Below, in pieces: positions 4,984 to 15,762 of a DNA stretch of 19,146 bases (positions within the stretch are counted from its first letter, which is position 1; every line of letters begins with the position of its first letter). The stretch is taken from UHGV virus genome UHGV-1607510. The stretch is one strand, 5' to 3'. A program made the position numbers and the translations under genes. The stretch is from a virus. The notes beneath the pieces were generated by a model. The model searched no databases. It saw only the letters and a list, made by a program, of their open reading frames with translations, and was not told the origin of the DNA.

Positions 4984-5199
4984 TCAATCCCCGTTAGTCG
5001 TTTCACTCACGAATCTGACAAAACCAGCCATGTTAATTTGCATGAGTTTTTTCAACACTTTGTCTCGTCGGCTACGTTTTGGTTTTGGCCTGTGGTTGAA
5101 TCTTTCACAAACTGGAAGGCTTGATGATTTCCAGTACCTATTACGCCTTGCTCCATCTTCCGCCATATCGGCATGAATAAGGTCTGCGAGTGTGCTCAT
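4984..5199 (-). CDS. Hypothetical small basic protein (71 aa)
   Basis: ATG 5199..5197 preceded by GGAGAGGTG with a 3-nt spacer. Product MSTLADLIHADMAEDGARRNRYWKSSSLPVCERFNHRPKPKRSRRDKVLKK... Confidence 0.45.
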   Translation of the reverse strand: MSTLADLIHADMAEDGARRNRYWKSSSLPVCERFNHRPKPKRSRRDKVLKKLMQINMAGFVRFVSETTNGD

Positions 5200-5213
5200 A
5201 TTCACCTCTCCAG

Positions 5214-5396
5214 TTACATTGGTTTTGTAATGTTGCTAGTCATCTTGCGAATAAAAAGATGCGTACGTAGCTTTGCTTCCCACATGTAAATCTCCTCAAG
5301 GCGAGATAAATCTACGAATACCGGACCTTTGTAATCTGGTCTTGATGCCCTTATGTATGAGCTAATAGTTTGTGCATCTTGCTCGTCAAGATTCAT
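5214..5396 (-). CDS. Hypothetical small protein (60 aa)
   Basis: ATG 5396..5394 preceded by GGAGAGGG with a 5-nt spacer. Product MNLDEQDAQTISSYIRASRPDYKGPVFVDLSRLEEIYMWEAKLRTHLFIRKMTSNITKPM. First gene after the tR2-like terminator. Confidence 0.4.
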   Translation of the reverse strand: MNLDEQDAQTISSYIRASRPDYKGPVFVDLSRLEEIYMWEAKLRTHLFIRKMTSNITKPM

Positions 5397-5411
5397 GAAT
5401 TCCCTCTCCCC

Positions 5412-5443
5412 CAAATAAAAAGACCTGCGATTACCAGCAGGCC
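5412..5443 (-). terminator. tR2-like intrinsic terminator between the replication genes and the nin region
   Basis: Minus-strand GGCCTGC-TGGTAATC-GCAGGTC followed by TTTTTATTTGG, 25 nt downstream of the helicase stop. Same position as lambda tR2 (the region removed by nin deletions). Confidence 0.5.
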
Positions 5444-5469
5444 TGTTATTAGCTCAGTAATGTAGATGG

Positions 5470-6846
5470 TCATACGTCAGCCCCTTGTGCATATCGTCTG
5501 CCACGCGCAGCAGGTGCATTTGATGCTGTGCAAATCTGTCTGGCTTCATCCTGGTCACATGCAACAAAGTGTCCGTTACAGAACCGCTGGTAAACCGTAC
5601 CAAGCGAGCCAAAACGGTTTTTCGTCACAATGATTTCAGCAAATGGCGCGGCGCTACTGTTCTCGTCATATACCGCTTCCCGATAGAGCATGATGATTGA
5701 GTCTGCGTCCTGTTCAATGCTTCCTGAATCACGCAAATCTGCGTTTGTCGGGCGTTTGTTTGGTCGCTTCTCAACATCGCGCGAAAGCTGACTCAGGGAG
5801 ATAACGGGCGTTTTCAGGTCTTTCGCCATCGCCTTCAGGCTTCCGGAGATGTGAGCAATTGCGAGGTCGTTGCGGTCTGCTTTCGGCTTCTCAATCAGAC
5901 CAAGATAATCCACCATGATGAGTGACAGGTTTGGATTTTCCTGTTTGTGCCGTTCTGCGATTGAGCGTATTTCTTCGACCGATAACCGCGAGGCATCGAC
6001 TACCCATACATCCAAATCTGCAAGCTGACTCATGCCGTTAGCAACGCGCGCCCAGCCTTCGTCATCCATCGATGCAGGATTTCGCAGCACGCTAACCGAC
6101 ATCCTCCCGGCGTTGGCAATGCTTCGCTCTGCAATCTGCAATGCGCTCATTTCCATCGAGAAAATCAACACTCCGCGCCGGACGTCAGAACCAGGAATAA
6201 CGCGGCTTGCAACGCCTTCGGCAATCTTCAGCGCCAGCTCGGTTTTCCCCATACCAGGACGAGCAGCGATTATCACCAGGTCTTCTGCGTTCATCCCTCC
6301 GGTGATGGCGTCAAGTTCTTCGATTCCGGTCTTCATGGTATCTGACTCTTCTCCGTTCCTCAGACGCCTGTCAAGCGTGTCAGTGTAGTCAGTGATGATT
6401 TCCCCTAACCGTACAGGTTTAACCTCGTCACGGGGCTTTCTGATGGCTGAGAGACGCTTTACAAGCTCGTCCATCGCCTGACTCGATGTATCGATGGTTC
6501 CGCTCTGAATTGGTTCACGCATTTCATCCATGATTTCCAGCACCAGACGGCGGTGATAGTTATCCGCGACCATTCCGGCGTATCCCTTCAGGTTTGCGGC
6601 ACTCGGGCAGTTCTTACTGGTCATCAGGATTGACGTGAAATGCTCCTCTCCGCACGCCTCGGCAACCATCAGCGCGTCGATTAGGTTTCTGTTTCTCGCC
6701 TGCTTGCGGATAACCTCGAAGGCTTTCCGGTAGAGCGGAATTGAAAACGCTTCCGGCTCCAGCGTTGCCAGAACGTCGCTGGCGGTTGGTGTTAATCCAC
6801 CAATCAGCAGGCCACCGATAACGCTCGCTTCGATATCCTGTCTCAT
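5470..6846 (-). CDS. Replicative DNA helicase, DnaB family (P22 gene 12-like)
   Basis: 458-aa ORF with Walker A ARPGMGKT, Walker B-like LIMVDYLGL and a DnaB-like N-terminal domain. ATGA overlap with the O-like gene stop. Confidence 0.9.
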
Positions 6847-8534: not shown

Positions 8535-9251
8535 ATGGAAAATAAAAAATCACTGACGACAGAACAGCTGGAAGACGCTAAGCGGCTTAAGGCTTTGTAT
8601 GAGTCAAAAAAGAAAGAATTGGGAATAACCCAATACTCAATCGCTGATGAACTGGGTATCACCCAAGGAGCGGTAGGGCATTATCTTAATGGCAGAAATG
8701 CGCTAAACGTTGAGGTTGCATCTGGTTTTGCACGATTGTTGCAAGTCTCAATTGCTGATTTTAGCCAGTCAATTGCTGCCAAGGTTGCAGAACAGGCAGA
8801 AAGCCTTAAGAGCGATGCCAACGTAAGGTATGCAGGGGAATACAGAGCAGGAAAGAGGTATCCGGTGTTAAGCAGTATCCAGGCTGGCTCGTGGTGTGAA
8901 GCATGCGAACCATACACCATTAAAGACATAGATGTTTGGCTTGAGTCTGACGCGCATATTCAAGGTAATGCGTTCTGGCTTAAAGTGGAAGGTGATTCAA
9001 TGACGGCACCGGTTGGGTTAAGCATTCCAGAGGGAACATTCGTTCTTTTCGATACCGGAAGGGAGGCAATCAACGGCAGCTTGGTCATAGCAAAACTTTC
9101 TGACTCTAACGAAGCAACATTCAAGAAGCTGATAATCGACGGCGGAAATAAATACCTCAAGGGACTTAATCCTGCATGGCCTCTCGTGCCAATCAATGGA
9201 AACTGCAAGATTATAGGCGTTGCAATTGAGACAAAACTCAGACTGGTTTGA
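8535..9251 (+). CDS. cI: CI prophage repressor (HTH plus S24 LexA-like autopeptidase domain)
   Basis: 238-aa ORF with HTH (ITQYSIADELGITQGAVGHYLNG), Ala-Gly cleavage site (SIQAGSW), catalytic Ser (VEGDSMTAPVG) and Lys (ATFKKLI). Collinear with lambda CI (TQEQLEDARRLKAIYEKKK...). Confidence 0.9.
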   Translation: MENKKSLTTEQLEDAKRLKALYESKKKELGITQYSIADELGITQGAVGHYLNGRNALNVEVASGFARLLQVSIADFSQSIAAKVAEQAESLKSDANVRYAGEYRAGKRYPVLSSIQAGSWCEACEPYTIKDIDVWLESDAHIQGNAFWLKVEGDSMTAPVGLSIPEGTFVLFDTGREAINGSLVIAKLSDSNEATFKKLIIDGGNKYLKGLNPAWPLVPINGNCKIIGVAIETKLRLV

Positions 9252-9769: not shown

Positions 9770-9811
9770 AATACCTTGGGTATTTACACAATAAAATACC
9801 TACAGTATTCT
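9770..9811 (+). promoter_or_regulatory. PL promoter with operators OL2 and OL1
   Basis: -35 TTTACA (9783-9788), 17-bp spacer, -10 TATTCT (9806-9811). OL2 AATACCTTGGGTATT at 9770-9784 and OL1 AATACCTACAGTATT at 9795-9809, spaced 25 bp as at OR. A degenerate third site AATATCCTTTGTATT lies at 9725-9739. Confidence 0.6.
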
Positions 9812-10005: not shown

Positions 10006-10278
10006 ATGACAGTAGTCATTACATATCTGGCTGACGATAACGCCAGAAATCGCCGCAGAGCACGCAGACAGGCTCAACGTGAACAGGCAATGCAAGAACA
10101 GCGACTGGCGCGAAAGATTGCGCTAAAGCTCTCTGGTTGCGTCAGAGCAGATAAAGCAGCATCACTCGGAAGCCTTCGCTGCAAGAAGGCAGATGAATGC
10201 AGTGGAAGTATTTGCCTGCCAAACGTAGCCATTTACGCGGCAGGCTACCGGAAATCAAAACAACTGACAGCCAGGTAA
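10006..10278 (+). CDS. N-like transcription antiterminator (P22 gene 24 type)
   Basis: 90-aa ORF with GGAGG RBS and an N-terminal arginine-rich motif (NARNRRRARRQAQREQ). First gene after PL-nutL. The C-terminus VAIYAAGYRKSKQLTAR resembles P22 gp24 as recalled. Confidence 0.75.
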   Translation: MTVVITYLADDNARNRRRARRQAQREQAMQEQRLARKIALKLSGCVRADKAASLGSLRCKKADECSGSICLPNVAIYAAGYRKSKQLTAR

Positions 10279-11570: not shown

Positions 11571-11665
11571 GCACTGTGTATTCATTCCAACGAGTGAATA
11601 CACGGAGCAATGTCGCTCGTAACTAAACAGGAGCCGACTTGTTCTGATTATTGGAAATCTTCTTT

Positions 11666-11693
11666 GCCCTCCAATGTGAGGGCAGTTTTTTTT
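11666..11693 (+). terminator. Intrinsic terminator immediately upstream of the coiled-coil gene
   Basis: GCCCTC-CAATGT-GAGGGC followed by AGTTTTTTTT. It ends 13 nt before the GGAGG RBS of the next gene. Confidence 0.6.
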
Positions 11694-11705
11694 GACGGAG
11701 GATAT

Positions 11706-12674
11706 ATGAGTGAAGTAACAGATTTAGTTGTTATTGAAAAAGCAAATGCAATGACTGTATTTCAGTCTGCCGACCAGATTGAAGAAATTCTCCAAAAGGT
11801 TGAACGTGAAGTTATGTCCTTTGTGCCTGATATCACAACGGCAAAGGGCAGAAAGGAGATCGCTTCTCTGGCGTATAAAGTTGCGCAGACGAAAACATAT
11901 CTCGATGGTCTTGGCAAAGACCTTGTTGCTGAACTGAAGGAAATTCCAAAGCTAATTGATGCCAACCGCAAGACAGTGCGTGATCGCCTTGATGAGCTGA
12001 AAGCCAAGGCACGCCAGCCTCTTACTGATTATGAGGAAGAACAGGCGCGGATTAAAGCCGAAGAAGAAGCTAAGGCAGCAGCTGAAGCTCTCGCAAAGCA
12101 AATTGAGTCTGACCATGAAATAGCGATTTTGATGGATCGAGAATTTGACCGCCAAAGAGAAGAGACAAGACTCAAAGCGGAGCAGGAAAAGCGAGAGCAT
12201 GAAGAACGCTTAAAAAGAGAAGCTGAAGAGAAAGCCAGAGCTGAAGCCGAAGCAAAGGCAAAAGCCGAAATTGAAGCAGCAGCAAGGCGAGAAGCAGAAG
12301 CTAAGGCAGCAGCGGAACGTGCAGAGCGTGAACGCATTGAAGCCGAGCAACGAGCACAGCGCGAAGCAAAAGAGGCAGCAGAACGAGCTGAAAGAGAAAA
12401 GCAGGCGGCAATTGAAGCAGAACGCAGAAAAGCACAGGAGGAGGCTGAACGAATCCGTCGCGAGGCTGAAGCAAAAGAGCAAGCCAGAATAGCAGAAGAA
12501 AAAAGAATCAAGGACGAAGAAGAGCGTAGAGCAAAGGATAAAGCTCACCGGAAAGAAGTAAATAACAAAATACTTGCTGACCTTATCAAGGTTGGCGCAT
12601 CAGAAGATGTTGCTAAAAATATCATAACAGCCATCGTAAAAGGCGAAGTATTCGCAACAAAAATAACCTACTAA
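11706..12674 (+). CDS. Coiled-coil protein with a long Glu/Ala/Lys/Arg-rich low-complexity repeat region (322 aa)
   Basis: ATG 11706 with GGAGG RBS. The track start at 11610 reads through the upstream terminator and is rejected. N-terminal globular part (MSEVTDLVVIEKANAMTVFQSADQIEEILQKVEREV...), then about 150 aa of EAEAKAKAE/AERAERE-type repeats, then a C-terminal tail. Confidence 0.65.
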   Translation: MSEVTDLVVIEKANAMTVFQSADQIEEILQKVEREVMSFVPDITTAKGRKEIASLAYKVAQTKTYLDGLGKDLVAELKEIPKLIDANRKTVRDRLDELKAKARQPLTDYEEEQARIKAEEEAKAAAEALAKQIESDHEIAILMDREFDRQREETRLKAEQEKREHEERLKREAEEKARAEAEAKAKAEIEAAARREAEAKAAAERAERERIEAEQRAQREAKEAAERAEREKQAAIEAERRKAQEEAERIRREAEAKEQARIAEEKRIKDEEERRAKDKAHRKEVNNKILADLIKVGASEDVAKNIITAIVKGEVFATKITY

Positions 12675-12698: not shown

Positions 12699-12830
12699 AT
12701 GATTTACGCAATCGCGGGAGGCGCTCGCATGGGTGCCTTCCAACTAAATGAATCTTTACTTGAACGAATCACCCGTAAATTACGTGACGGATGGAAAAGA
12801 GTTGAGGTCTTATTATGCGCAATGAAATAG
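12699..12830 (+). CDS. cIII: CIII (FtsH-inhibitor) homologue
   Basis: Not in the track (43 aa). ATG 12699 with AAGGA RBS. Product MIYAIAGGARMGAFQLNESLLERITRKLRDGWKRVEVLLCAMK. The central region matches lambda CIII (ESLLERITRKLRDGWKRL) by recall. Confidence 0.7.
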   Translation: MIYAIAGGARMGAFQLNESLLERITRKLRDGWKRVEVLLCAMK

Positions 12831-12966
12831 CCATCAATCACCAGATGCTTCGTGCAGCACAGAACAAAGCAGTAATAGCCAGATTTATTGGTGATTCAAA
12901 AATGTGGATTGAAGCAAATAAAGCGATGAAATCAGCTATCAACCTTCCGTGGTATCGCAGGAAATG
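12814..12966 (+). CDS. Kil-like small protein (putative host division inhibitor)
   Basis: 50-aa ORF overlapping the cIII 3' end by 17 nt, with GAGG RBS. Product MRNEIAINHQMLRAAQNKAVIARFIGDSKMWIEANKAMKSAINLPWYRRK. The Kil assignment rests on position after cIII and a loosely remembered IATFIGDEKM-type motif. Confidence 0.45.
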
Positions 12967-13134
12967 AGTTTTACAGATAACTGGTCAGACGAAGAATTCA
13001 TTCGTCAGATGAAAGAATTAATCGGTAACGAAGGAGATATTCATGTCACTTGCAACCACAGTGAAGGAGAGCAAGTTACAGAGACGCATGTACACGCAGC
13101 AGGCGTTAATGTATCGCCAGAAGGGAGATCGTGA
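12963..13134 (+). CDS. Hypothetical small acidic protein (56 aa); Arf-like by position only
   Basis: ATG 12963 overlapping the previous stop (ATGA). Product MSFTDNWSDEEFIRQMKELIGNEGDIHVTCNHSEGEQVTETHVHAAGVNVSPEGRS. The track ORF starts upstream at 12949. Confidence 0.35.
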
Positions 13135-13221
13135 AGGTGTTCGCGTATTTTTAAATGCGGCAAAGACTGAAGTATTAAATCAGCGTTATTTCCTTGGGCC
13201 ATGTCCATTCTGAGGTGAATT

Positions 13222-13929
13222 ATGGATTTGAATAAATTCGATGAGCCATTCAGCCCTGAAGATATCGAATGGCGAATACAGCAAAGCGGTAAAACACGCG
13301 ATGGAAAGGTGTGGGCTATGGTGCTGGCTTATGTCACGAACAGGGCAATCATGAAACGCCTGGACGATGTTTGCGGCAAAGCAGGATGGCGCAATGAATA
13401 CCGCGATATTCCCAACAACGGAGGCGTTGAATGCGGCATATCAATCAGGATTGATTCCGAATGGGTAACCAAATGGGATGCTGCTGAAAACACGCAGGTA
13501 GAAGCCGTAAAAGGTGGTCGTTCCGGTGCAATGAAGCGCGCTGCCGTTCAGTGGGGAATCGGTCGGTATCTGTATAACATTGAGGAAGGTTTCGCACAAA
13601 CATCTCTCGATAAAAAGCAGGGATGGCACAGGGCAAAACTCAAGGATGGAACAGGATTTTACTGGCTCCCTCCATCGCTGCCGGGATGGGCAATCCCAGC
13701 ATCAGATAACAAACCATCACCAGAAAATACCAACCAGAAATCTCCATCGGTTGACTGCGAGCAAATCCTGAAAGACTTCAGCGATTATGCGTCAACAGAA
13801 ACTGACAAGAAAAAACTCATCGAGCGTTATCAGCGTGACTGGCAATTAATGGCTGGCAACGAGGAGGCGCAGGCTAAATGCGTTCAGGTAATGAACATCA
13901 GAGTTAACGAACTAAAACAGGCGGCATAA
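13222..13929 (+). CDS. Single-strand annealing protein (Rad52/Erf-type recombinase)
   Basis: 235-aa ORF with GAGGTG RBS. The core VEAVKGGRSGAMKRAAVQWGIGRYLYN resembles the conserved Rad52/Sak/Erf annealing-domain signature. Immediately followed by SSB. C-terminal tail ...TETDKKKLIERYQRDWQLMAGNEEAQAKCVQVMNIRVNELKQAA. Confidence 0.7.
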   Translation: MDLNKFDEPFSPEDIEWRIQQSGKTRDGKVWAMVLAYVTNRAIMKRLDDVCGKAGWRNEYRDIPNNGGVECGISIRIDSEWVTKWDAAENTQVEAVKGGRSGAMKRAAVQWGIGRYLYNIEEGFAQTSLDKKQGWHRAKLKDGTGFYWLPPSLPGWAIPASDNKPSPENTNQKSPSVDCEQILKDFSDYASTETDKKKLIERYQRDWQLMAGNEEAQAKCVQVMNIRVNELKQAA

Positions 13930-14403
13930 ATGGCAAGCAGAGGCGTAAATAAGGTGATCATTATTGGTCGCCTTGGGCATGATCCAGAAATCAGATATTC
14001 ACCATCAGGAACGGCATTTGCAAACCTTACCGTTGCTACGTCAGAACAATGGCGTGATAAGAAAACTGGAGAGCAAAAGGAGCAGACGGAGTGGCACCGC
14101 GTGGTAATGAGCGGGAAACTGGCAGAAATTGCCAGCGAATATCTGCGAAAAGGCTCTGAGGTTTATCTTGAAGGCAAATTGCGGACAAGAAAATGGCAGG
14201 ATCAAAGCGGACAGGATCGGTTCACTACCGAAGTCATCGTGGGCGTTGGTGGAACCATGCAAATGCTTGGTGGCAAGCAAGGAGGCAATGAACAGTCTTC
14301 ACCTCAGCGAAATAATGGTCAGCAACAAAGACAGCAACCTCAGCAGCAGGGGAATCACAGCGAACCACCTATGAACTTCGACGATTCGGATATTCCGTTC
14401 TAG
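13930..14403 (+). CDS. ssb: Single-stranded DNA-binding protein (SSB)
   Basis: 157-aa ORF with an OB-fold N-terminus ([44 protein letters not shown]), a Gly/Gln-rich linker and the acidic C-terminal tip DDSDIPF. Confidence 0.9.
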
Positions 14404-14412
14404 GAGCTGAAT

Positions 14413-14892
14413 ATGAAAATCTGCTCAAGATGCCATCAACAGAAGGAAGAAAGGGACTTTCAAATCAGAAGAGCATCCAGAGATGGATTAACTGCCGCTT
14501 GCCGGGCTTGCCTGGCTGAATACGACAAAGAGCGCGCGGGATTGCCACATCGAGTATCAGCAAGGAGAGAATATCAATCATCGGAACGCGGCAGAGAACG
14601 GTGTAACGCAGCCAAAAAGCGGTTCATTCAGAGCAACCCATGGAAAAGAAAAGCCCACATCATCGTGGGTAATTTTTTGCGCGACGGTAAGCTAATCCGA
14701 CCACCACAATGTGAGTGCTGCGGATCAGAATGCAAACCACAGGCGCACCACTGCGACTACAGCAAACCAACCGATGTGATGTGGCTCTGCAAGTCATGTC
14801 ATGTCGAGTGGCACAAACATAACAAACCTATCTACCCAGACGAGGAGCCAGTAACTCTCCCCTTCCCTCGTCACGCTATTCACGCAATTTAA
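14413..14892 (+). CDS. Cys-rich zinc-finger protein with an HNH-like C-terminal motif
   Basis: 159-aa ORF with CxxC pairs (CSRCH, CRAC, CECCGSEC, CKSCH) and QAHHCDYSKPTDVMWLCKSCHVEWHKHN, resembling the HNH nuclease beta-beta-alpha-metal motif. Confidence 0.55.
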   Translation: MKICSRCHQQKEERDFQIRRASRDGLTAACRACLAEYDKERAGLPHRVSARREYQSSERGRERCNAAKKRFIQSNPWKRKAHIIVGNFLRDGKLIRPPQCECCGSECKPQAHHCDYSKPTDVMWLCKSCHVEWHKHNKPIYPDEEPVTLPFPRHAIHAI

Positions 14893-14900
14893 GGACTTAC

Positions 14901-15449
14901 ATGAATCACTTGATGGTTGACCTTGAAACAATGGGCAACGGGCCATACGCGCCAGTTATTTCTATTGGGGCGGTATTCTTTGACCCGAATACCGGAGAAA
15001 CAGGAGAAGAGTTCTCGGTAAATATCTCGCTTGAATCATCAATGCGATATCGAGCGCGTCCTGACGCTTCAACGATTTTATGGTGGCTGGAACAGAGTGA
15101 AGAAGCCAGGAAATCGCTAACCAGCAACACTCAGGAGCTTTCAACGGCTCTTTCATGGTTATCTGAATTCATCATAAAGAACGCTAACCACAAATTCGTT
15201 CAGGTTTGGGGGAATGGAGCATCATTTGACTGCGTTATTCTCCGCAACAGTTATTCGCTGACAGGGCAGCCAGTTCCGTGGCAGTGGTGGAATGACCGCG
15301 ACGTAAGAACAATCGTCGAACTTGGGAAGGCAATAGGATTCGACCCTAAGCGAGATATGCCATTCAAAGGAACTCGCCACAACGCTCTTGATGATGCCAT
15401 TCACCAAGCCAAATACGTTTCAGCGATCTGGAAAAAGTTAGCTAAATAA
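14901..15449 (+). CDS. DEDDh-family 3'-5' exonuclease (DnaQ-like)
   Basis: 182-aa ORF with Exo I (MVDLETMG), Exo II (WGNGASFDCVIL) and Exo III (HNALDDAIHQAKY) motifs. Confidence 0.75.
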   Translation: MNHLMVDLETMGNGPYAPVISIGAVFFDPNTGETGEEFSVNISLESSMRYRARPDASTILWWLEQSEEARKSLTSNTQELSTALSWLSEFIIKNANHKFVQVWGNGASFDCVILRNSYSLTGQPVPWQWWNDRDVRTIVELGKAIGFDPKRDMPFKGTRHNALDDAIHQAKYVSAIWKKLAK

Positions 15450-15465: not shown

Positions 15466-15762
15466 ATGCCAGCGCCTCTGTATGGTGCGGATGACCCGCG
15501 CCGCTGTTCCGGCAATTCCGTATCGGAGGTGCTGGATAAATTCAGAAAAAACTACGATCGGATAATGTCGCTACCGCAGGAAACGAAAGAGGAAAAGGAA
15601 TTTCGCCACTGTATATGGCTTGCAGAGAAAGAAGAACGCGAGCGAATTTACCAGACATCAATCCGACCATTCCGCAAAGCCACATATACCCACTTCCCTG
15701 AATATATCGACCCGCGCCTGCGTAATTACCGCTCACGCTATGGCGCTATCAGTAATGACTGA
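15466..15762 (+). CDS. Hypothetical protein (98 aa)
   Basis: ATG with AGGAGA RBS. Product MPAPLYGADDPRRCSGNSVSEVLDKFRKNYDRIMSLPQETKEEKEFRHCIWLAEKEERERIYQ... Confidence 0.5.
   Translation: MPAPLYGADDPRRCSGNSVSEVLDKFRKNYDRIMSLPQETKEEKEFRHCIWLAEKEERERIYQTSIRPFRKATYTHFPEYIDPRLRNYRSRYGAISND

Follow-up and report, generated by a model that had tools for sequence, protein, structure and literature searches.

What is a 3'-5' exonuclease doing beside a single-strand annealing protein in a phage recombination operon? The question is raised by the UHGV virus genome UHGV-1607510 (19,146 nucleotides (nt), one strand, hereafter the window), in which an earlier note, made from the sequence, had recognized at 13222-15449 an annealase gene followed by genes for a single-stranded DNA-binding protein (SSB), an HNH-like protein and a DEDDh exonuclease. 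Following up this locus computationally, we consider it quite probable that it is an ordinary P22/Sf6-like recombination module, with a core of annealase, SSB and Abc2 to which two optional, single-gene nuclease cassettes are gained and lost independently. The five genes are:

13222..13929, + strand: Rad52/Sak-family annealase, 235 amino acids, core gene (PF04098, E=2e-25)
13930..14403, + strand: bacterial-type SSB, 157 amino acids, core gene (PF00436, E=3e-38)
14413..14892, + strand: predicted HNH-type protein, 159 amino acids, optional cassette 1 (fold and motif; PHROG 2340 'endonuclease', E=3e-47)
14901..15449, + strand: DEDDh exonuclease, 182 amino acids, optional cassette 2 (PF16473, E=7e-74)
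15466..15762, + strand: abc2, anti-RecBCD, core gene (PF11043, E=4e-62; PHROG 656, E=8e-57)

The window represents the early region of an Escherichia coli phage or prophage of the lambdoid, P22/Sf6-like kind. In its early-left (PL) operon, five tightly packed genes form a module for homologous recombination (a 'Rec' module). The four co-directional open reading frames (ORFs) first noticed are all present, with spacers of 0, 9 and 8 nt, the ssb start codon directly abutting the annealase stop codon. The module does not stop at 15449, where the earlier note had ended it, as abc2 (15466-15762), lying 16 nt downstream of the exonuclease gene and outside those coordinates, also belongs to it. Abc2 matches PF11043 at 206.8 bits (cut-off 25), with residues 1-98 aligned to positions 1-97 of the 97-position profile, and abc2 was found in 74 of 74 scorable annealase-anchored loci.

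We evaluated the two nuclease genes in near-identical modules elsewhere. We compared 74 IMG/VR loci whose annealase shows at least 99% identity and whose downstream DNA is long enough: 36 carried annealase, SSB and abc2 only, 18 had the exonuclease gene in addition, 18 the HNH gene in addition, and 2 had both, with the ssb-to-abc2 spacing taking four discrete values (62, 506, 622 and 1066 nt) that correspond to clean, gene-sized indels at gene boundaries. Counting a gene at 80% coverage or more, and both nucleases by the HNH-exonuclease junction, we found the annealase in 392 of 5426 complete E. coli genomes (~7%), the HNH gene in 98, the exonuclease gene in 152 and both in 36, where chance predicts 38 (98 x 152 / 392). 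The two nucleases thus assort independently and neither attract nor repel each other, and neither is present in about 45% of otherwise near-identical modules. A four-gene machine with the HNH and exonuclease genes as fixed parts, as the locus had been pictured, is not what these counts describe: both are optional and independently assorting. Both are under purifying selection (ratio of nonsynonymous to synonymous polymorphism, pN/pS, 0.10 for HNH and 0.13 for the exonuclease), so both cassettes are functional genes that confer something; neither, however, is likely to be an obligate partner of the annealase or of the other.

The exonuclease family also extends beyond recombination modules. In Salmonella and Klebsiella prophages (loci L167-L172, around 5001-5570), homologues with 60-62% identity are found close to the integrase end, where no annealase, SSB or abc2 occurs among the called genes, and where the exonuclease gene is either directly preceded by a gene of the dATP/dGTP pyrophosphohydrolase family (PF04447) or placed just downstream of a DndB-like gene (PF14072). 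This agrees with the 'sporadic' DnaQ and HNH genes noted outside Rec modules by Zheng et al. (PMC12315714).

The question of polarity is then largely answered by abc2. As far as the account in PMC5928155 goes (citing Murphy 2000), P22 Abc2 binds RecBCD and converts it to a 5'-3' resecting activity for the phage annealase, and Abc2 has been described as binding RecC and blocking Chi activation (Zheng et al. 2025, PMC12315714). Since P22-type modules delegate resection to Abc2-modified RecBCD, the missing 5'-3' nuclease needs no special explanation, and since Abc2 would account for resection, the exonuclease need not be the partner of the annealase. The earlier remark that a 3'-5' exonuclease is not the usual resecting partner was therefore apt as a description and much less so as a puzzle; abc2, together with the dispensability of the nuclease add-ons, takes away most of the apparent paradox.

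The core proteins themselves are readily placed. By profile comparison, ORF 13222-13929 is a Rad52/Sak-type single-strand annealing protein, matching Pfam Rad52_Rad22 (PF04098) at 89.8 bits (cut-off 20.3; residues 4-136 against positions 7-153 of 153) and PHROG 1097 at E=3e-129, with pN/pS 0.08. The 'Rad52/Erf-type' label first given to it keeps its Rad52 half and loses its Erf half, 'Erf-like' being a PHROG label only; a Pfam scan of the annealase at E<=0.01 returned Rad52_Rad22 alone and no Erf profile. A WW domain at annealase residues 129-164 (13606-13713), GWHRAKLKDGTGFYWLPPSLPGWAIP, was considered on a weak PDB match to Prp40 (E ~0.1) and rejected, Pfam being unsupportive. That the annealase is followed directly by the phage's own SSB holds, given the 0-nt spacer and matches of the latter to PF00436 (130.5 bits, cut-off 26) and TIGR00621 (180.6 bits, cut-off 53.95). 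In this SSB an OB fold is joined by a Gln-rich linker to a free acidic tip, the protein ending ...NFDDSDIPF and then stop.

In P22-like headful-packaging phages, annealing circularizes the terminally redundant genome and feeds recombination-dependent replication. By analogy with such systems, the module would be expressed by transcription from PL, and after infection or induction Abc2 would bind host RecBCD, block its response to Chi and leave it a helicase with 5'-3' resecting nuclease activity. The phage SSB would then coat the 3' single strands, its acidic tip perhaps recruiting or stimulating the annealase in the way the HK620 SSB acts on Sak4, and the annealase would pair complementary strands, leading to genome circularization and the start of recombination-dependent replication. 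The HK620 precedent is that the phage SSB stimulates its neighbouring annealase, Sak4, via its last six residues (PMC5928155).

The SSB tip is also where the first cassette leaves its mark. At the 37 HNH-containing loci the SSB ends ...DIPF and stop without exception (in the window the 3' end of ssb is 14389-14403), whereas in 115 of 116 HNH-less loci its frame runs on for 15 residues, APVTLPFPRHAIHAI, a tail that the annotated SSB of epsilon34 also contains. The same 45 nt are found in the window at the far end of the HNH gene:

14848..14892, + strand: 45-nt tail, PVTLPFPRHAIHAI plus stop, forming the disordered C-terminus of the HNH-type protein here (predicted local distance difference test score, pLDDT, <70)

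These 45 nt are thus HNH C-terminus in the window and C-terminal extension of the SSB in HNH-less relatives. The terminal residues of SSB proteins are a binding site for partner proteins, so that in the majority (HNH-less) allele this site would be buried: judged from the sequences, the 15-residue extension would hide the canonical IPF tip.

What the HNH-type protein is had to be read from its predicted structure. Its sequence gave no usable match in Pfam (E<=10), NCBIfam, PADLOC or, by phmmer, the PDB; profiles built from 29 or 72 homologues gave no PDB match; the Pfam HNH model (PF01844) was matched by 2 of the 29 homologues at only E=0.68 and by none of the 72 at E<=0.01; and Foldseek against the PDB returned nothing at E<=0.001. 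The AlphaFold model (pLDDT 92.6) comprises an N-terminal C4 zinc ribbon (C4, C7, C30, C33), a four-helix linker and a C-terminal beta-beta-alpha-metal unit, with strands at 110-113 and 122-125, a helix at 127-136, predicted zinc ligands C100/C103/C126/C129, the pair H112-H113 ending the first strand, and H130 and H134 in the helix. Among homologues H112, H113, H130, H134, C100, C103 and C126 are invariant or conserved at 90% or more; position 129 is mostly Cys, with His in three of the aligned sequences. Foldseek against the predicted structures of BFVD gave 31 matches at E<=1e-3, the named ones mostly HNH, HNHc or endonuclease VII. On the strength of this model, ORF 14413-14892 is predicted to have an HNH-type nuclease fold with plausible catalytic residues, and the first description of it as a Cys-rich HNH-like protein is borne out by the beta-beta-alpha unit and the conserved Cys/His positions. 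The earlier note had tied its HNH call to a catalytic His/Asn: the His is kept, and the Asn position is D121 here and Asp or Glu across the family. The wider family combining a zinc ribbon with an HNH-like domain is large (68,919 cluster representatives at E<=0.001, 30,002 at E<=1e-10), and it has no Pfam or NCBIfam model and no solved relative detectable by sequence.

How such a gene comes and goes beside ssb brings in the alternative that survives best. It is possible, though we do not favour it, that the HNH gene encodes a putative free-standing homing endonuclease directed at the conserved ssb 3' end, spreads between co-infecting phages and contributes nothing to recombination. The polymorphism of presence and absence is precise at the ssb stop codon; the sequence of the ssb tip is linked to HNH status (37/37 vs 115/116); an unrelated HNH gene, ES18 gp47 (locus L163, 2735-3256), occupies the same slot between ssb and abc2; and remnants and fusions exist (phiKp_30, P0073 and P0112). 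On the other side, in the HNH-less allele the final 45 nt of the HNH gene persist as a fusion to ssb, and this allele therefore looks like a deletion product rather than an empty target; a similar tail in one HNH homologue at 43% identity, P0109, suggests that the tail is native to the HNH gene. HNH genes have entered the ssb-abc2 region more than once, and we suggest, tentatively, that the gene in the window probably acts as a mobile nuclease gene beside ssb, perhaps of the homing type.

Rare derivatives of the ssb-HNH-exonuclease interval, produced by deletion or fusion, comprise P0070, P0073, P0083, P0112 and phiKp_30. The last (locus L164, 2890-3110) is a ~200-nt internal-deletion remnant of the HNH gene; in P0073 the OB domain of the SSB is fused to the C-terminal half of the HNH protein at a shared IVG motif, and in P0112 the HNH N-terminus is fused to the exonuclease C-terminus. 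Because such rare fusion proteins exist, deletions appear to be frequent in this interval. A further HNH gene, epsilon34 gp31A (locus L162, 3902-4468), annotated 'possibly defective', lies a few genes downstream of abc2.

Turning to the second cassette, the exonuclease matches Pfam Rv2179c-like (PF16473) at 247.8 bits (cut-off 27; residues 2-177 against positions 1-177 of 177). The earlier note had called it DnaQ-like with all three Exo motifs, a call that degenerate motifs on alignment would have undone; in 19 homologues (57-88% identity) D7, D110, H160 and D165 never vary, E9 shows at least 90% conservation, and the motifs are intact. In the PDB it matches 8KEL/8KEN (E=1.5e-13 as a single sequence, 5.5e-15 as a profile), 227-residue 'exodeoxyribonuclease' chains that we take to be the T4 DexA and S87A/D90A mutant of Kang et al. 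2025. As no other solved structure, Rv2179c entries included, matched at E<=1, T4 DexA appears by sequence to be its closest characterized relative. The two share the DEDDh family and homology over residues 4-145, in which D7, E9 and D110 align to DexA and W130 to W152 of DexA. They differ in that the exonuclease is shorter (182 vs 227 amino acids) and lacks the DexA loops, that the position of D90 falls in a gap so that it has no D90 equivalent, and that it is encoded by a temperate phage with unmodified DNA; the D169 position of DexA lies outside every alignment obtained. Its 3'-5' polarity would follow from that of DexA, and by the same analogy we tentatively suggest that it trims 3' DNA ends or oligonucleotides in end processing or salvage, not in resection.

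The resemblance to DexA also leads to a quite different proposal, in which the exonuclease is an anti-phage weapon, either of the DexA/EcD-like kind ('HREX') or more generally a prophage-borne DEDDh defence nuclease, and which we regard as unlikely. EcD, a homologue of DexA from E. coli, is reported to have lost the D90 residue of the tetramer, to cut DNA only if it contains 5-hydroxymethylcytosine and to protect against T4 (Kang et al. 2025, PMC12153337). The only solved relative of our exonuclease being T4 DexA, and the exonuclease sharing with EcD the absence of a D90 equivalent while keeping the equivalent (W130) of W152, with D169 one of the residues for 5-hydroxymethylcytosine recognition, one may imagine, at low probability, a modification-dependent nuclease of the EcD/HREX kind, carried as a mobile early-operon cassette and destroying the hydroxymethylcytosine DNA of competing T-even-like phages. 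On this improbable account it would be active while the phage itself grows lytically, or weakly from the prophage, and would leave unmodified DNA, the phage's and the host's, intact. For a defence role more broadly there are a 2026 preprint reporting prophage DEDDh nucleases that defend against RNA phages and a weak DEDDh match in PADLOC. EcD, however, is a different protein, its cloning primers encoding the N-terminus MIDTET, which the exonuclease does not share and which begins 0 of 10 exonuclease homologues; and the D169 equivalent could not be aligned. Exact searches of viral contigs for the EcD reverse primer gave nothing, or one chance match in a locus without an exonuclease-like ORF. 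Nor would the expected expression suit such a weapon. Lying in the middle of the operon behind PL and without an above-chance promoter of its own, the gene should be silent in lysogens: a consensus scan found 7 promoter-like sites inside the module against 17.4 in shuffled sequence, none above chance, and for this reason both nuclease cassettes are probably silent in lysogens.

Less probable again is that the four genes make up one integrated recombination machine, with the HNH protein introducing breaks and the 3'-5' exonuclease serving the annealase as its dedicated processing partner. That the genes are contiguous, co-directional and 0-16 nt apart would suit it, as would the purifying selection on both nucleases, but the ~45% of modules with neither nuclease, the 36 co-occurrences against 38 expected, the exonuclease homologues with no annealase nearby and the resection already covered by Abc2 all speak against it. 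We also considered, and rejected, a pairing of the HNH and exonuclease genes like that of I-TevI and DexA in T4 intron homing, their co-occurrence being that of chance. Finally, it is very unlikely that ORF 14413-14892 is no real gene, or encodes a structural zinc-ribbon protein without nuclease activity: NCBI's Prokaryotic Genome Annotation Pipeline leaves the 100%-identical ORF unannotated in the RefSeq E. coli matches listed (e.g., NZ_AP022173.1, L002 9405-9901), Pfam, NCBIfam and PDB sequence matches are lacking and Asp/Glu replaces the HNH Asn, but a pN/pS of 0.10, a pLDDT of 92.6 and 30,002 cluster representatives at E<=1e-10 led us to reject the idea of no gene, and the His pair and helix His at positions matching HNH catalytic residues, invariant or nearly so, together with predicted-structure neighbours that, where named, are mostly annotated as HNH-type nucleases, speak for a nuclease.

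The reading of an ordinary Rec module with two optional cassettes has its own difficulties, and five points weigh against it. Tightly packed DnaQ and HNH genes have been seen as very likely members of Rec modules (PMC12315714), which would favour the integrated machine. A 3'-5' exonuclease should destroy the very 3' tails that the annealase needs, and a helper role for it is not obvious; 3'-5' nucleases, it has been remarked, 'curiously, usually inhibit homologous recombination' (PMC12315714). The low pN/pS of the HNH gene would be expected of a useful gene and equally of an active selfish one. The HNH assignment draws on fold and motif, with no profile link to Pfam HNH or to a solved HNH nuclease. 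Last, the five proteins are known here from their genes, and the mechanism given for Abc2, SSB and annealase would be one transferred from P22, HK620 and lambda.

Comparison with known systems places the module more exactly. Its nearest counterpart, phage Bas106 (CurroJimenez_Bas106, PQ850599), has the same five genes in the same order (Bas106_0030-0034) at 98% nucleotide identity, annotated as annealase, SSB, endonuclease, exonuclease and abc2, with essentially no difference within the module; the difference lies outside, the flanking early genes being mosaic and 47% of the window covered. Elsewhere the nuclease content varies, Sf6 having the HNH gene only, mEp235, mEpX2 and epsilon34 the exonuclease gene only, and N7, IME10 and HK75 neither. 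The Rec modules of 325 lambdoid phages have been analysed by Zheng, Casjens, Davidson, Amundsen and Smith (2025, Genome Res, PMC12315714), who name DnaQ-like and HNH nucleases as Rec-module members and describe a class made of anti-RecBCD, SSB, nuclease and annealase, with ES18 as prototype and 25 phages. Our module resembles this ES18 type in its early-left operon position and its four functional classes, the families occurring singly in Sf6, epsilon34 and mEp235; it differs in having two nuclease genes, HNH and DnaQ-like, and the HNH family of ES18 gp47 is unrelated to that in the window. In the panel of 325, three phages have two genes of one function and none has HNH with DnaQ (PMC12315714). 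The module type, including the curiosity of its 3'-5' DnaQ-like nuclease, is thus already published, and the two nucleases in one module are the uncommon part.

With the arf-erf-abc1-abc2 operon of P22 the module shares operon position, abc2 and the absence of a phage 5'-3' exonuclease, whereas its annealase is of the Rad52/Sak type and not Erf, and the slot of abc1 holds ssb and the two cassettes. The HK620 set of Sak4, SSB and Abc2 (Hutinet et al. 2018, PMC5928155) is alike in having an annealase, its own SSB directly after and then abc2, and differs in its RecA-like Sak4 annealase, its non-canonical SSB and its lack of nuclease genes. Lambda Red has the same operon position and would serve the same purpose, phage-directed annealing and neutralization of RecBCD; here there is no nuclease of the lambda-Exo/YqaJ type and no Gam, the SSB is the phage's own, and RecBCD would be hijacked and not blocked. 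The earlier statement that the operon lacks the lambda exo/bet/gam trio accordingly stands, with no match to the Exo (YqaJ-type), Beta or Gam families among the ORFs from kil to abc2 in Pfam and PHROG scans.

The rest of the window bears out its lambdoid character. The best whole-window matches are phages HZ41, HF4s, HK544, Bas106, IME10 and Sf6, reaching ~97% identity in mosaic segments, and the genes on the + strand run cI-like repressor, N-like antiterminator, cIII, kil, two small ORFs, annealase, SSB, HNH, exonuclease and abc2. Upstream of the module we list:

8535-9251, + strand: cI-like repressor gene
9783..9811, + strand: promoter-like site, candidate PL (9/12 matches in a consensus scan, not significant alone)
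10006-10278, + strand: N-like antiterminator gene
11610-12674: 354-residue ORF upstream of cIII in the same operon (matching only PHROGs 1376 and 21365, of unknown function)
12699-12830, + strand: cIII
12815-12967, + strand: kil
12964..13134, + strand: small ORF of 56 amino acids from ATG (PHROG 2123 'recombinase', E=5e-40)
13043..13213, + strand: second small ORF of 56 amino acids (PHROG 1723 'recombinase', E=4.5e-34)

The site at 9783..9811 is assigned to PL because its position between the cI-like and N-like genes fits lambdoid gene order. The 354-residue ORF has a long central region rich in Glu, Ala, Lys and Arg, probably a coiled coil. The first small ORF, which the ORF list starts at GTG 12949, occupies the position of P22 arf between kil and annealase; the second, 8 nt upstream of the annealase gene, has GGAG 7 nt 5' of its ATG and a pN/pS of 0.25. 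The two lie in different frames, overlap by 92 nt and were both found in 131 related loci, such that one may be a conserved artefact or the overlap a true out-of-frame one. An Rfam search found no RNA families in the window, and the absence of Chi sites from it is uninformative, only 0.38 being expected.

As found, the module is one more copy of a catalogued type and matters little; what the analysis does is to sharpen the published question of why a 3'-5' exonuclease occurs in a recombination module. Should the exonuclease turn out to work against competitors or against defences, these common prophage genes would have to be reclassified, and if it is true that gain and loss of the HNH gene switches the SSB tip on and off, these phages would offer a natural test bed for the coupling of SSB and annealase, relevant to recombineering tools. 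For the family as a whole, cassettes that are independent and dispensable, and an exonuclease that also lives outside Rec modules, argue against reading adjacency as functional partnership.

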